Made by a program: the position numbers and the translations under genes
Shown: positions 1,156-13,835 of the stretch, piece by piece
Layout of the letters: every line of letters begins with the position of its first letter
How positions within the stretch are numbered: the first letter of the stretch is position 1
DNA from: Candidatus Thorarchaeota archaeon
GTDB lineage: Archaea; Asgardarchaeota; Thorarchaeia; Thorarchaeales; Thorarchaeaceae
Direction: 5' to 3'
Assembly: GCA_046482545.1 (NCBI GenBank)
Contig: JAWOEX010000025.1
Span: forward strand, 1-13,835
DNA length: 13,835 bases
The notes under the pieces: generated by a model
What the model was told of the DNA's origin: nothing
Seen by the model: only the letters and a program-made list of their open reading frames with translations
Database searches by the model: none

Positions 1156-3432
1156 GTGTCAGCCATGACCAGCTTAAAGCAGGAAGAAAGTAGGATCATC
1201 ATTGGCATATTGATTGTAATTGGGTTTGCATATGTTTTCTTCATCAGCGATCCACCGTGGCAGACACATGGCTCAGCCCTAGCCTATCATTCGCTTCTGG
1301 GATTCTTATCGGTCGTTGTAATCGGATCCGTGATGAACCGTTTCATAATGGATCCTTCTCCCGCTCATAGAGTGTTTCTTGCTGCTACAGGATATCTTGC
1401 GGTTGTTCATCTTGGAGCCGCGTTGGTTCACATGTTTCCATATGCCGGACCAATAGCACATACTGAACCCAAAGGAGTGTTCATGGGTATCGTAGAGATA
1501 GGTATTCTTGCGGTAATGCTACTAGTAGCTGCATATCTCAATAGTCAAAGACCGAAAGAAGGGTCGTTTTGGAACAAGAGATTCACACCTATGGGACTAC
1601 TTGCCATTTCATTGATTGTATATGGTTTGAGCGCCCTTATTTCAGAGCTACCAGCCCCATCCCCATTCCTGATTGGGGGCGGATTTGTTATCGGGTTCAT
1701 CACTCTTGCAGCATTTGTCATCTCGTGTTTCTTTGTCTTCAAGCGTCCGGAAGGAATTTCCTCTCATGACAAGAAGCGATTGATTGTTTCCTATTGTCTA
1801 TTCATTCTATCAACAGTAGTGCTTCTACTGATTCTGCCCTCTCCGAACAGTCTGTGGCTACTGAAGTTAGCTTTTCAACTGGGTGCACTCATCTTCATGA
1901 TTTTTGCTACAGGATATCCATTTCTGTTGGACGTTGGACTTGAAGAGAAAGTGGCATACGCCTTCATAGCTGTTCTCACGTCTCTAGCAGTATTACCTTT
2001 CATTCTTACTCAAATCATTGAATATTGGTTGCCTCTTGTTTCCTATCAGAATCAGTCCCTTGGCATAATACTGCATCTATCGGCTGCAGTTCTTTCCGGA
2101 GTTATTGGCTACGTACTCACCGAAAGGGTCAAGGATAGAACGCCATGGTATGATGGGCCAGCTATATTCGCGCTATTCTCATGGATGATAATTGAGTCAG
2201 TCATCGTCTGTGTTCGCCTCTTGAACCCGAATGGAATTGCTGTAGAATCTCTGATGCCGTACCTGTGTGGCGGAATCATTGCTTCTGTGGCAATGATAAT
2301 AGGTATACGTCGCACACTCCAATCCCAACACGACAGGATACCTCAACAATATTCACCAATCCGAAATATCTCATACATCGTTGTTGCACTTCTTGTCATG
2401 TTGATTGAGAGTATGTTGATTTTCATACCATCATTACGTACTCAAGTGCAACAGTCACCTCTTACGTCGACCTTGTTGCTCATTACTGCCTATGCCTTTG
2501 TTTTTGGCGTGACCACCTTTGCCATGTTGCGGGCTGCACAATCAGGAGGGATGTATTCCGTTGAGATGGTAGGAGTCGGATCCCTCTCACTATGGGCTGT
2601 TTCTCAGATACTGCGGGTGAACTTCTCAGTATGGACCGCAGGATGGTGGGCTGCAGAGGTTCTACTGTTTATCATCTTCCTGTTTGTTTGTCCACTCATT
2701 GCTGGTTTGTATATAGAAAAGTACCATCTGGAGACGCACCTCAAGACTGCTTCAAGAATCTACACGAACCTGATGGTTGACAAAATGAACCAGCATCATA
2801 GAGTGGCTCTGGATTCACTCAGTGGAATGTTCAAGCATGTTGCCCTCGAAGAGAAGGAAATGGAGAAGATCTCTAGGGCGTTAACGGCGGTTTCACTTGC
2901 AAATGAGATGGTCGATAGATTTGAAAACATCCTCAAAGGAAAAGCAATAGATGTTGAGAGAATTGAAAAAATCGATTTGCATGATGCATTGCAGGCCGCT
3001 TTTGAACGAATCTGTCAAATTCAGTCTCAGGTTACGGAGCTTGAAACGATTGAATGTCCAGGGCATTGTGAAGTGTGGGGAGATTCCATGGTGGTTGATC
3101 TCTTTTACAACCTGCTCAAGGGCCTCCTAACGAGAATACACGCGGATGCTGTTTCGGTAAGTATCGAGAGATGCGACGATCACATGTGGTGCACTTCAAT
3201 TCACATCTCTACGGATTCTGAAGTTCAGGAGGTTATGACTAATCTTCTCAGCCGGTATCTGTCTCAGGTTAGCGACAGCAATGTTGAGTTTCTCCTACTG
3301 AAAGAATATATCCGGCTGCTCAGAGGAGAGATAACTGTTGGTAATTCTCATCAAAGCGGAGCACAGGATGTCATCACAGTAACAGTGAAACTTCCAGCAG
3401 CCGAGCCTCACCATCTTAACACCAATTCCTGA
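1156..3432 (+). CDS. Polytopic membrane sensor protein (MASE3-like N-terminus) with degenerate C-terminal histidine-kinase/HATPase-like domain
   Basis: 758-aa ORF (alternative ATG start at 1165). The first ~520 aa are successive hydrophobic helices, and HSLLGFLSVVV...GYLAVVHL...VHMFPYAG resembles MASE3-type sensors. The soluble tail has kinase-like layout (IDLHDALQAA; VWGDSMVVDLFYNLL; IRLLRGEITV) but no recognisable H-box or G1/G2 glycine boxes. Family call is from motif recognition only. Confidence 0.7.
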   Translation: MSAMTSLKQEESRIIIGILIVIGFAYVFFISDPPWQTHGSALAYHSLLGFLSVVVIGSVMNRFIMDPSPAHRVFLAATGYLAVVHLGAALVHMFPYAGPIAHTEPKGVFMGIVEIGILAVMLLVAAYLNSQRPKEGSFWNKRFTPMGLLAISLIVYGLSALISELPAPSPFLIGGGFVIGFITLAAFVISCFFVFKRPEGISSHDKKRLIVSYCLFILSTVVLLLILPSPNSLWLLKLAFQLGALIFMIFATGYPFLLDVGLEEKVAYAFIAVLTSLAVLPFILTQIIEYWLPLVSYQNQSLGIILHLSAAVLSGVIGYVLTERVKDRTPWYDGPAIFALFSWMIIESVIVCVRLLNPNGIAVESLMPYLCGGIIASVAMIIGIRRTLQSQHDRIPQQYSPIRNISYIVVALLVMLIESMLIFIPSLRTQVQQSPLTSTLLLITAYAFVFGVTTFAMLRAAQSGGMYSVEMVGVGSLSLWAVSQILRVNFSVWTAGWWAAEVLLFIIFLFVCPLIAGLYIEKYHLETHLKTASRIYTNLMVDKMNQHHRVALDSLSGMFKHVALEEKEMEKISRALTAVSLANEMVDRFENILKGKAIDVERIEKIDLHDALQAAFERICQIQSQVTELETIECPGHCEVWGDSMVVDLFYNLLKGLLTRIHADAVSVSIERCDDHMWCTSIHISTDSEVQEVMTNLLSRYLSQVSDSNVEFLLLKEYIRLLRGEITVGNSHQSGAQDVITVTVKLPAAEPHHLNTNS

Positions 3433-3774: not shown

Positions 3775-4749
3775 TTAACTGCTAGAATCATCTTCCGGTG
3801 CGTCAGGTTCTTCGCATTCAGAAATCTCATCAGACAGCCAAGAACAGCAGTCATTGTTTGTTCTATAGAAATCCTCCCAGGTGAGCCATCCCAGTCTGGG
3901 TAACACCTTCTCCCAATTCTGATTCTTCCTGTGAGATAGTTCAAGAGGCATGGAGTTTGGATTCTGCTTGTAATCTAGGAACTTGTATCCGTATAATCTG
4001 CGCGTGGGATTGTTCTTGAACATCTCAGGTGTCAACAAGAGAATCAGCGATCTCTCTGGAATTCTCTCGCATAGCGGTTCGCAGAGATCGTCGTTTTCTT
4101 CCAGCATGACATCGATTGCCCTAGCTAGCTCGTTTCGAGTGGCATCGTAGGGAGTCTGATAGCTGATATCAGACAGAACCTTCGCTTCCACTATCACCGA
4201 AAAACCGTTGCCGGGATTTATGAGCAGGGCGTCGACGTGTGTGGGTTCCTCCAGACTCTTCTTTCCATCAGCACTGCTGAATACGTAGGGAATCAAATGC
4301 CGATTATGCAGGTTTTGACTAAGCCACGCCGTATAGGAGTCTGGTGGGGGAAGGCTGACCTCAAAGTATAGCTCCAGATTTCCTGCTAGGCACTCCGACC
4401 AAGAGTCCAAGCCAGACACAGGAGGAATATCACCAAATGCCTTGATGAAGAGATGTTCTAACATCTGCTGGCGTTTTTCGTCATAATACATTGTCATCAT
4501 GCATGATGCAAGCCAGATACGTTCATCCCTCTCTACCTGACAGGGGTGTCGCATTTCTGACACAGGTTTCCCTTCCCTGTCCGGGTTGTTGGCAAGGTAC
4601 TCATGGTACCTCTCGACACTATTCCTATAGTAGTCCAGATTCTGTTTAGTCTCAACGCATTCACCTTTATCCTTGACCTTGGCGAAATGATTCAGTAGCT
4701 CGCCCTCGGTGAAAGGCAAATACGTACACTCCAAGACTTCGTCATTCAT
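3775..4749 (-). CDS. Hypothetical protein with PD-(D/E)XK nuclease-like motif
   Basis: 324-aa ORF with ATG start. The motif EEPTHVDALL-x9-IVEAKVLSD...RNELAR fits the restriction-endonuclease-like D...EAK signature. Confidence 0.7.
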   Translation of the reverse strand: MNDEVLECTYLPFTEGELLNHFAKVKDKGECVETKQNLDYYRNSVERYHEYLANNPDREGKPVSEMRHPCQVERDERIWLASCMMTMYYDEKRQQMLEHLFIKAFGDIPPVSGLDSWSECLAGNLELYFEVSLPPPDSYTAWLSQNLHNRHLIPYVFSSADGKKSLEEPTHVDALLINPGNGFSVIVEAKVLSDISYQTPYDATRNELARAIDVMLEENDDLCEPLCERIPERSLILLLTPEMFKNNPTRRLYGYKFLDYKQNPNSMPLELSHRKNQNWEKVLPRLGWLTWEDFYRTNNDCCSWLSDEISECEEPDAPEDDSSS

Positions 4750-6534: not shown

Positions 6535-7308
6535 TCTCTCGAGTTACCATGCGGTGTGCTTGTCACCTCTAACTACCCGTTTCACTCCTGTACGATTAGC
6601 TGTCAGGAGGAGATATTGTGAGCTGTAGTATCTCAGTTCTCCGTGACGAGCGGAGATGGTAAGGGGGATAGTATCCTTAATGCTTTTGTTCTCCTAAACT
6701 GCGTCTGCCACCTTCACACACTGAACCAAATTTGTACACCGTCAAGTGCATCCAGAGAGTTAGAAATCTTACAGAATCCTAAATAAATCGGCACATAGGA
6801 GTGTACAATATCTGTAAGATTTCCTGTATGCCTTCTTATGACCAAGGGCGAGGGGAGTTTATTAGGCCTAGTAAGAAATCTGAGTCTAGTAGGACTAGGG
6901 CGATGGGCCACCCCCGAACGGGGGAAGGGTTCAGCCCCGAAGGCTGTGAGGAAGACTCGTTCTTCTAAACAGAAGTCCTCACTCTCCAAAAAGGGGTCCT
7001 CATCAGACCCCGGAGAGTCCGCGGCTGTTCGCTGTGTCCAATTGGACCTGTCTGGTTTCGGTGACGAGACTGGGCAGAGCGATAATAACCCCGCCGTGGC
7101 AAAAGCTGTGGAAGACCTCGCTGCCCCCGGATGTGATGTATCGGGTCAGGGCAGGAGACAGAAGCCGAGACCGAAAGAGGGACCGTGTCCTGATGATGGC
7201 GGTCAATGTCCTTGCTTGGCCGGGGGTAGCGCCTTGGTATGGCGGCGACGCTGGGCAAGGAAAGGGTGGAACACAGGAGTTTCCTAAGTTGGGTTCACTC
7301 ACTCAACT
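6535..7308 (+). ncRNA. Candidate large structured non-coding RNA of unknown family (boundaries approximate; best-supported core 6841-7238)
   Basis: The intergenic region has no credible protein and is densely tiled with helices found by hand. Examples: ACCAAGG 6841-6847/CCTTGGT 7232-7238, a 12-bp helix 7119-7130/7220-7231, and a 13-bp helix 7048-7060/7065-7077 capped by a GUGA (GNRA) loop. Many pairs are G-U only on the + strand. No covariation or expression data are available. Confidence 0.65.
6763..6823. repeat. Perfect 13-bp inverted repeat with 35-bp spacer
   Basis: GAAATCTTACAGA (6763-6775) / TCTGTAAGATTTC (6811-6823), with inner TCCTA 6777-6781/TAGGA 6796-6800. Confidence 0.85.
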
Positions 7309-7371
7309 GTAAGAAACATGTTATCCAGACCTGATTCGCTGTTTAGGAACAGTATAGCTTTAAGAACCAAA

Positions 7372-7463
7372 TTAGGATTCGTCATATTCCACCAGGCACG
7401 ACCGTTTCGTCTTGTAGGGCCACTTCGACTGGAAATTCCGTGGCTGGAAATCAAACCATCTAT
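7372..7463 (-). pseudogene. Diverged 3'-end remnant of a homologue of the 9139-9624 gene
   Basis: Reads IDGL[frameshift]FQPRNFQSKWPYKTKRSCLVEYDES*, versus VEGLNLQPRDFTPKWPYKTKWSRLLEYDES* in the intact gene. By hand count, 62 of the last 78 nt are identical, with many third-position changes. Offset is 1767 bp. Confidence 0.9.
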
Positions 7464-9049: not shown

Positions 9050-9138
9050 CTGAACCCTCCCATGTATGAAGCATTGCCTGTAATATAGCAACTTGAAAAA
9101 TAAGGATTGTGAGTGGTGGGCTGATGTTAACTTACCGA

Positions 9139-9624
9139 TTAGGATTCATCGTATTCCAGAAGGCGCGACCACTTCGTCTTGTAGGGCCACTTTGGCGTGA
9201 AGTCTCGTGGTTGGAGATTCAACCCTTCAACCTCAGATATCTTTCGGCGCAGTGTGTAGGACTTCGCACCCTCCCAGCGGAAGTAGTCATCGAGATCAGC
9301 CGAGAACTCGCCTTGGTACCGCATGCACTTGCCGATACAGAACACCTTTTCCCCCTGAATCTCAAGTTCCCCGCCGCACCACTTGCATCGGGCCTCAAAC
9401 CCGTGCGAATAAATCGTTCCGTCTCGCAGTTCAACAAACAGCACTGTATCATGGAACCGACACACTCCCCACTCGCGGTCTGGAGCGAGTTTCTTGAGCC
9501 AGATGGTTCCGCGGGGCAACCAGCGGCCCACTTCCTCGGAGAAGATGGACGCGTCCTCCTTGAGCTCGCCATCTTCGTCAAAATCACTCAGTTGAGTTTG
9601 CAGTATGTGACCTCGGTTCTTCAT
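9139..9624 (-). CDS. Hypothetical protein with Zn-ribbon (CKWC...CIGKC)
   Basis: 161-aa ATG ORF directly downstream of pfkA on the same strand. Largely synonymous divergence from its remnant copy at 7372-7463 supports this frame as the coding one. Confidence 0.8.
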   Translation of the reverse strand: MKNRGHILQTQLSDFDEDGELKEDASIFSEEVGRWLPRGTIWLKKLAPDREWGVCRFHDTVLFVELRDGTIYSHGFEARCKWCGGELEIQGEKVFCIGKCMRYQGEFSADLDDYFRWEGAKSYTLRRKISEVEGLNLQPRDFTPKWPYKTKWSRLLEYDES

Positions 9625-13023: not shown

Positions 13024-13740
13024 TTACTTCTTCTTCATCCAGATGATGATGACAATTATCACGGCTACTCCTATTGCAGCCGCAATCAGGATGATAGTCA
13101 TGTCCATTCCATCTGGAGGGGGTGTCGTTGTTGTAGTCGTTTCAGAGGTTGTAGTTGTGGTCGTAGTAGTTGTCGTGGTCGTTGTTGTAACGGGTTCAGT
13201 GACCGTCAAGTATACCGTAGAAGTGGCCAGATTGTCCGATGTATCGGTAACTGCAAGAGTCAAATTCCAAACACCGACACTCAATCCTCCGGCATCGACT
13301 GAGATCTCTGAGCCATCCCAAGCACCGCTGTCTTCAATTGTACCGTTGATATAGAAAACATAGGAGTCTGGGAAGTCCTCGGTGAACGTCCAGTTGACTA
13401 AATGTTCTGCTGTTCCTTCTTCGTATTGCAGGTTATCGGGTGCATCAACGAAGGCAGGATAGGTGGTGTCCACAACTGTTACCATGACTGTATCTGATAC
13501 TGAATAACCCACGGTATCGTAGACAGTCAGTTCAAATGCGAGTAGCTCAAGGCTATCCTCTTCAAGATCATAGATGATCTGCCCGCCATCCCAGTCTCCA
13601 CTCTCTACTATGACTGAATCACGCTTAATCTCGTATGAATAAGGCCTGTCACTTGTTGGTGTCCACGTAATTGATTCGCCAGTGTCAAACGCCTCTATGC
13701 TCATATCACTTGGGCTGTCGATTGTGGGACGCATTATGAA
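13024..13740 (-). CDS. C-terminal part of an Ig-like-repeat cell-surface protein with Thr-rich linker and C-terminal TM anchor (5'-truncated)
   Basis: Two ~90-aa repeats (PTIDSPSD...ITW...PYSY...SGDWDG and PAFVDAPD...VNW...PDSY...SGAWDG), then a poly-Thr linker, TM helix and KKK tail. There is no signal peptide, and the 5' end runs into the terminal fold-back. Confidence 0.88.
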   Translation of the reverse strand, partial: FIMRPTIDSPSDMSIEAFDTGESITWTPTSDRPYSYEIKRDSVIVESGDWDGGQIIYDLEEDSLELLAFELTVYDTVGYSVSDTVMVTVVDTTYPAFVDAPDNLQYEEGTAEHLVNWTFTEDFPDSYVFYINGTIEDSGAWDGSEISVDAGGLSVGVWNLTLAVTDTSDNLATSTVYLTVTEPVTTTTTTTTTTTTTTSETTTTTTPPPDGMDMTIILIAAAIGVAVIIVIIIWMKKK

Positions 13741-13835
13741 TGCAATTTCATAATGCGTCCCACAATCGACAGCCCAAGTGATATGAGCATAGAGGCGTTT
13801 GACACTGGCGAATCAATTACGTGGACACCAACAAG
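13652..13835. repeat. Perfect 89-bp inverted repeat (fold-back) running to the window end
   Basis: 13747-13835 is the exact reverse complement of 13652-13740, with loop TGCAAT (13741-13746). Confidence 0.97.

Follow-up and report, generated by a model that had tools for sequence, protein, structure and literature searches.

Casposons carry a Cas1-fold integrase, a family B DNA polymerase and terminal inverted repeats (TIRs), and their insertion leaves a target-derived duplication. The omega-RNAs characterised so far run about 150–250 nt, far below the ~400 nt of the RNA treated here. aCas1 was reportedly described by Makarova et al. in 2020. The aCas1-associated TnpB loci of Asgard archaea were named Cas1H-Asgard-1 and -2 by Altae-Tran et al. 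2023 (PMC10691335); the accessible part of that report describes a rearranged RuvC domain for their TnpB, publishes a GTTCACTCA motif downstream of tnpB, and proposes that the guide is the hypervariable stretch preceding this motif. The Halobacterium sotRNAs, which belong with the omega-RNAs, have no classical BRE-TATA promoter (PMC4615843). IS200/IS605 derivatives use the Y1 TnpA, a one-sided TAM and no duplication, and the cutting of alleles followed by restoration of the element has been demonstrated for IS605 elements, with PATEs proposed to behave likewise (Meers et al., PMC10055086). IS607, in turn, encodes TnpA-S and has an invariant GG core (Chen et al. 2018, PMC6188088).

The window, meaning the whole stretch of DNA that was analysed, comprises 13,835 nt of contig JAWOEX010000025.1 from Candidatus Thorarchaeota archaeon (GCA_046482545.1; genome G000 in what follows, its contigs being numbered with C). 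We think, with a probability of roughly 0.75, that positions 6751–7329 are a gene-less mini-transposon reduced to its ends and an RNA, and that this RNA is a self-transcribed TnpB omega-RNA scaffold acting in trans. The element is present in many copies with exact ends, larger parents have the same ends, the fold is conserved while the reading frame decays, and insertion into TC-NN-GA is precise. The locus resembles the aCas1-TnpB loci of PMC10691335 in its Asgard host, in a Cas1-like giant protein encoded beside tnpB, in its flanking repeats, and in a conserved region downstream of tnpB that bears GTTCACTCA, here at 7293–7301. The accessible part of that report makes no mention of protein-less mini-copies, of a covarying 400-nt fold, of a promoter or of TC-NN-GA ends, so that, measured against this part, three things are new: the fold backed by covariation, the inheritance of the core and the apparent promoter of mini-copies.

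When the genome was searched, only about 6750–7330 of the region recurred, with about 106 whole or partial matches, about 40 of them near full length. Together they amount to 35 kb, or about 1.2% of this genome, and they interrupt genes. The element and its surroundings are as follows.

6751–7329, + strand: non-autonomous mini-transposon (MITE/PATE-like, aCas1-TnpB derivative) of 579 bp, both terminal hexamers included, encoding no protein; defined by its copies, its sharp ends and the same ends in the parents.
6751–6756, + strand: left junction hexamer TC-CA-GA (consensus TC-NN-GA); NN identity and empty sites.
7324–7329, + strand: right junction hexamer TC-CA-GA; sharp ends, NN identity and in silico removal.
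6757–6825, + strand: left end with inverted and tandem motifs TCTTACAG (6767–6774) and CTGTAAGA (6812–6819), shared with the far end of the parents.
7280–7323, + strand: right end, a hairpin with CTGTAAGA (7307–7314), terminating in GTTA; kept in nearly all copies.
6631–6753, − strand: left flank, a gene-end fragment cut at the insertion point and outside the RNA; 89% paralogue of C31:14393–14514.
7330–7457, − strand: right flank, duplicating the 3' end of ORF 9139–9624 (161 aa); rearrangement scar, 79% identity over 7371–7457.

The motifs TCTTACAG and CTGTAAGA of the left end are presumed to be transposase-binding sites; the terminal inverted motifs of the element are imperfect and subterminal. 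In 25 of 35 copies the left and right dinucleotides NN agree (shuffling gives a mean of 4.9 and at most 14), orthologous empty sites carry a single hexamer, and a search for a longer target duplication found that identity stops at the hexamer (p 0.27). When the element was removed in silico, 4 of 28 reconstructed sites fell in long ORFs, which were thereby restored (3 antisense, 1 sense). Of the 37 family genomes, 25 contain the RNA or element, and all 24 other Asgard genomes searched lack it; named sequence-pattern matches are nearly all from Thorarchaeota, and viral contigs gave no match. One pattern match (L189) comes from a contig of 2.5 kb that bears the label Woesearchaeota and may be mis-binned. 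In five mini-copies of other Thorarchaeota (L142, L161, L165, L211, L220) TGTCAGA replaces TGTAAGA at both ends, so the ends covary, and several of these copies keep the TC-NN-GA junction.

The two flanks of the window copy derive from different loci. Since no contig spans the element, the cause may be recombination between copies or a mis-join through the repeat; the empty site of this locus was not found in 4 relatives. The preliminary description had remarked on a rearrangement scar beside the region, and 7371–7457 is indeed 79% identical to 9138–9224. The window copy is moreover a mosaic, given that its core resembles one parent (6892–7325 shares 96% identity with the C20 parent's 3' end, the core 96–97%) and its 5' 150 nt resemble other mini-copies (97%). 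Among the copies in general, internal deletions of the core exist and many copies are 5'-truncated. The truncated copies gave rise to the idea of a SINE-like retroelement, which was rejected: there is no RVT_1 match and no A-tail, and both DNA ends are shared with the 8-kb parents. At C20:181314–182446 two mini-copies stand head to head with one shared hexamer, and similar nested or inverted arrangements occur at C9:359467–359777 and C41:25041–25601.

The parents are 8.2–8.3 kb long, and their contents are limited to a giant gene, an ORF of 205–224 aa and TnpB. Two complete ones, C28:133383–141695 and C20:228516–236755, share both ends with the mini-copies and have matching hexamers; in the C20 parent, TnpB is encoded at 228653–230332. 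The mini-element is an internal-deletion derivative of aCas1-TnpB parents and has lost both genes. In G000, six TnpB/Cas12f-like genes have 3' tails homologous to its core. In the parent TnpB the aspartates of RuvC-I (GIDLG) and RuvC-III (NAD) are intact; G stands in place of the RuvC-II glutamate, and an E has been relocated to PE-WTS, which is the rearrangement reported in PMC10691335. Like the PATEs or omega-RNA-only derivatives of IS200/IS605 described in PMC10055086, the mini-copies are protein-less, keep both ends and the putative omega-RNA, and would rely on enzymes in trans. They differ from them in that the parents have no Y1 TnpA (the single Y1 gene of the genome, at C24:6134, is unlinked to the parents) and in the symmetric TC-NN-GA hexamer at both junctions. 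Three intermediate deletion derivatives in G000 (C28:70480–72275, C33:19203–20649 and C20:190506–190987) keep the left end and a remnant of the C-terminus of the giant. A parent subgroup lacking the usual right end abuts a tRNA gene (L048, at C23:124089–124302 of G000, tRNA-Gly; also L008, L009 and L011), and the parent L134 of G001 abuts an apparent 3' remnant of tRNA-Ala.

The giant gene encodes 1400–1960 aa, stands head to head with tnpB and adjoins it in 4 parent loci of G000. Its protein has no match in Pfam, NCBIfam, PDB sequences or Atlas; the named homologues come from Thorarchaeota and one MAG labelled Lokiarchaeota. The predicted structure contains the helical domain of Cas1 in residues 8–240 (Z 12.9, rmsd 3.6 over 178 residues), and the best 12 fold matches of this domain are all Cas1 or casposase, 6opm included. 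After the Cas1 domain comes a predicted Cas4/RecB-like nuclease (Z about 7); the model also shows a RecA-like fold, with Z about 10–11. E92, H174, D184 and R187 are invariant, which we take to resemble the catalytic pattern of Cas1. Judging from these models, the giant would be a Cas1-fold protein, with the helical domain only, and a putative enzyme.

Mobilisation in trans over a two-base crossover core is, on balance, our preferred reading, with the giant Cas1-fold protein as the most likely agent. At least 11 different core dinucleotides occur (AA, CA, TG, AG and others). In trees of the 125 nt next to each end, the core dinucleotide follows the lineage of the element (30 changes against 40.6 when shuffled for the left end, 29 against 35.7 for the right), and each of the two ends beats all 5000 shuffles; the whole-element tree of 29 copies gave no such signal (p 0.71). 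The empty sites fit both a 6-bp duplication and a 2-bp core. An inherited core fits a two-base exchange of the IS607 kind better than a plain target duplication, and a serine recombinase better than the known chemistry of Cas1. A serine recombinase that escaped assembly is the less probable but still sizeable alternative. No match to a serine or tyrosine recombinase (PF00239, PF07508, PF00589) was found in G000, nor an IS607 TnpA-S in three genomes of the genus (G000–G002) or in the ORFs of the parents, bearing in mind that MAGs may miss repeats; for this reason the giant is the sole candidate in the parents. The possibility that DNA carried by the element guides the choice of NN was also considered and rejected, as none of the element's columns predicts the dinucleotide.

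The element is similar to IS607 (PMC6188088) in the phased short motifs inside its ends, in its unconserved terminal bases and in what fits a 2-bp core exchange; unlike in IS607, its core varies inside TC..GA, and no TnpA-S turned up in the genus. With casposons it shares a Cas1-fold enzyme, here the presumed integrase on the strength of a predicted structure, and the location of some parents at tRNA genes. It differs from them in having TnpB as a partner and no family B polymerase (no Pfam or NCBIfam match to a DNA polymerase in the ORFs of the parents), in a giant whose Cas1 part is only the helical domain, fused to nuclease and RecA-like domains, and in a core that appears to be inherited instead of being a plain target duplication. 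A second aCas1 group (L136–L139, in G005, G010, G021 and G022) has an IS607 TnpA beside the giant, a 700–745-aa TnpB with the canonical RuvC-II glutamate, a left end of another kind and nothing that matches this RNA, so that two TnpB types are seen among aCas1 loci. IS607 TnpA was tried as the transposase and dropped, since the related aCas1 elements that have it carry another TnpB and lack this RNA.

Within the element, the following features belong to the RNA.

6888–7301, + strand: conserved structured RNA of ~400 nt with about 20 helices, putative scaffold of a TnpB omega-RNA; covariation, folding z and enrichment in metatranscriptome X6.
6859–7155, + strand: remnant of the tnpB 3' tail (parent residues 448–547), frameshifted and no gene; tblastn 89%.
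6858–6865, + strand: TATA-like box TTTATTAG; a pyrimidine-purine start follows 30 nt downstream, at 6888.
7264–7301, + strand: GGGTGGAAC (7264–7272), complementary to the GTTCACTCA motif (7293–7301); duplex predicted in 28 motif-keeping copies.

The preliminary description had proposed a structured + strand RNA of ~0.8 kb, at 6535–7308 and of no recognisable family. Such an RNA is present, with a length of ~400 nt (about 6888–7300) and a fold signal limited to 6860–7290, and it has a family, being the tnpB-overlapping right-end RNA of aCas1-TnpB transposons. Against shuffled sequences the full 6535–7308 folds with a z of −3.4 on the + strand and −1.65 on the − strand, the segment 6860–7290 with −4.2 and −1.2, and 6535–6749 alone with −1.4. 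The + orientation, deduced earlier from G-U pairs, is borne out by 1073 G-U against 309 A-C in the consensus helices and by the alifold energy (−174.7 on + against −147.4 on −). The helices then named are all present as complementary strings. The 3' hairpin 7287–7294/7301–7308 is also firmly predicted (pair probability 0.96), and the nested arrangement holds for the core of ~400 nt, which has phylogeny-aware covariation. No support was found for the two outer stems, which join unique flank to element and reach maximum pair probabilities of 0.004 (6682–6695/7263–7280) and 0.16 (6701–6710/7240–7251), or for the helix 6841–6847/7232–7238 thought to close the core (probability 0.018; paired in just 15–67% across 72 copies), as 7233–7240 pairs locally with 7219–7226 and not with 6841–6847. 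The supposed 5' junction domain (6535–6668) has a z of −2.1, is unique and has no homologue in 4 relatives. The flanks are host sequence outside the repeat, and hence this domain and the outer stems are host DNA.

Covariation was assessed on 72 copies by a tree-aware count of compensatory double changes (Bonferroni E < 0.05, with a rough Poisson null), adopted because naive mutual information is swamped by phylogeny. Seventeen pairs covary significantly, 15 of them in the predicted fold, and compensatory change is in excess in most helices between 6891 and 7261; RNAalifold on 31 copies found two-sided change in 49 of 88 pairs (in alignment A4 the row L051 contributes gaps only). Homologues thus keep base pairs and not the frame: the tnpB tail has frameshifts or stops in all 39 mini-copies inspected, and rates by codon position are flat there (0.27, 0.21, 0.25), with no third-position excess. 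Between intact parents this excess is 0.475 in the tnpB core versus 0.156 in the tail.

The RNA runs sense to tnpB, overlapping its 3' end, and adjoins the right end, as do TnpB omega-RNAs (reRNAs) and the archaeal sotRNAs (PMC4615843), with which it also shares a possible 3' pseudoknot, here with a GUUCAC motif. In contrast to them it is roughly twice as long as usual and matches no Rfam model; as expected earlier, 6535–7330 gave no covariance-model match at E up to 5. That the RNA is the omega-RNA scaffold of the rearranged-RuvC TnpB of the parents we consider likely. Conserved GUGAUGA/CUGAUGA-like internal loops at 7134–7140 and 7192–7199 look by eye like kink-turns (L7Ae). A hammerhead suspected by eye near 7175–7200 was discarded, one helix being absent and the motif unconserved.

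A TATA box 30 nt before a pyrimidine-purine start is the usual archaeal geometry. The step at 6888 is conserved, and 31 of 43 mini-copies have a TTTATTA-type box whose start precedes that of the GGACTAGG core by exactly 34 nt, at a site where the parents have tnpB codons. In other genera, where the sequence upstream in the mini-copies is unrelated, TATA-like boxes also occur, at about −33 to −36 (with a strict pattern, at −35 or −36 in 22 of 38). This fixed box sets the mini-copies apart from the Halobacterium sotRNAs. From their sequence, the mini-copies appear to have a promoter of their own, which they would need since there is no tnpB mRNA from which to process the RNA; transcription from it, starting near 6888, seems to us likely. 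In metatranscriptome X6 the depth is 352–1850 over 6833–7255, 0–3 over the flanks and 0 at the left end, compared with DNA runs in which the element has 200–500, the flanks 10–14 and the left end is covered. The resulting enrichment of about 100–600-fold comes from contigs, is strandless and is summed over copies, and the reads may stem from parents or other copies. In the second RNA run, X3, enrichment does not exceed copy number; runs with small word shares were left out as evidence. In four RNA and DNA runs no circle junction, empty-site joint or element-skipping joint was found, contigs being prone to drop rare forms.

At the 3' boundary, the GTTCACTCA motif sits in the loop of the 3' hairpin, after a hypervariable stretch that pairs with the right end in the window copy. 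Its modelled pairing with GGGTGGAAC would be a possible pseudoknot closing the scaffold. Just 22 of 72 right ends in G000 keep the motif, and the other 50 have lost GTTCACTC. Candidates for the guide are the flank past 7329, the sequence following GTTCAC and the hypervariable stretch; a genomic target for the flank of the window copy was searched for and none was found. By analogy with the IS605 and PATE work, the following course seems to us somewhat more probable than its absence. The mini-copy itself would transcribe the RNA from the TATA box near 6888, TnpB made by five or six parent loci would load it in trans, and a guide would be taken from its 3' end, most likely host flank past the right end. 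TnpB would then cut empty, excised or sister alleles, and repair would restore the element, which would be retained or spread by such cutting.

The RNA of the mini-copies might instead be a passenger of DNA ends that alone matter, its fold inherited from the parents by repeated deletion or recombination and now decaying. Such decay is visible: on terminal mini branches pairing survives 50% of stem changes and double changes make up only 9%, versus 69% and 25% on parent branches, from which we conclude that many mini-copies are decaying. Internal core deletions, the loss of GTTCACTCA from most copies, and the mosaic window copy, parent-like in its core and mini-like in its 5' part, agree with it too. 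What makes this reading unlikely is that on internal all-mini branches 76% of stem changes keep pairing versus 29% under neutrality, at a halved stem rate, that unrelated mini lineages have TATA boxes at fixed spacing, that about 40 copies retain the full core despite the existence of shorter forms, and that the RNA is enriched in X6. At the other extreme, a 0.8-kb ncRNA, ribozyme or ORF-less intron of its own, the main idea of the preliminary description, would account for the size, the genuine fold and the want of an Rfam family. It is largely refuted and very improbable: its outer helices are unsupported and its sequence derives from tnpB. Within 6535–7330 the likeness drawn to OLE, ROOL, GOLLD and introns found no Rfam match to these RNAs or to group I/II introns. 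An intron is further opposed by 24 of 28 reconstructed sites lying outside long ORFs (only one of the others being sense), by the absence of element-skipping joints in RNA or DNA runs, and by a genome with no reverse transcriptase. The last point also bears on the guess of a non-autonomous RNA-based mobile element; non-autonomous and mobile it is, as a derivative of a DNA transposon and not of an RNA-based one. RNase P and SRP RNA, rightly excluded before, have no match in the window, and divergent forms of them were set aside, the genuine genes sitting elsewhere, on contigs C34 and C28.

A different role for the same RNA would be to serve the giant Cas1-fold protein, or a giant-TnpB complex, as scaffold or targeting RNA in transposition, beyond guiding cleavage by TnpB. 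The RNA is oversized, with many invariant unpaired stretches, and its presence goes strictly with that of the giant: among the 37 genomes of the family, 24 have both, 1 has just the RNA and 3 have just the giant. Core and promoter persist even in copies that lack the 3' motif of the TnpB type, and no other recombinase was found. We nonetheless regard this role as improbable, slightly more so than the passenger, because the second aCas1 group has the giant with a different TnpB and no such RNA, so that the RNA tracks the TnpB type and not the giant; moreover, no element column predicts the core dinucleotide, and omega-RNAs normally lie where this RNA does, at the 3' end of tnpB and at the right end. 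The wider proposal, that a Cas1-fold enzyme and no serine recombinase moves the elements by a recombinase-like exchange over an inherited two-base core, and that TnpB and the RNA, equipped with a promoter repeatedly in mini-copies, take part in transposition, is likewise improbable; were it true, ancestors of CRISPR adaptation and of Cas12 would be joined in one element.

With the omega-RNA scaffold as the preferred reading, a supposed orphan RNA is replaced by a testable description of the aCas1-TnpB class, which is known from computation alone. About a hundred mini-copies supply exact ends, a target consensus, an apparent natural promoter and a covariation-backed fold for an unusually long putative omega-RNA outside Rfam. 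This opens the questions of whether a Cas1-fold protein can act as a transposase and how an archaeal TnpB with a rearranged RuvC uses a 400-nt RNA. If copies that encode no protein have gained a promoter, this would speak directly for selection on omega-RNA-only elements to borrow TnpB in trans.

Elsewhere, the window begins with a CRISPR array of 14 repeats (1–1070), the sole copies of that repeat in the genome. Its spacers have no convincing match within the genome and none to the element, and no Cas1 (PF01867) was found in G000, where absence from a MAG is not proof. At the contig end a perfect 89-nt inverted repeat (13652–13835) truncates the start of the ORF region 13024–13734; it is probably an assembly artefact and yields spurious miRNA matches. 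The ORFs 1156–3432, 3775–4749 and 9139–9624 (758, 324 and 161 aa) have no Pfam match, and the 324-aa protein shows by eye a PD-(D/E)xK-like motif.
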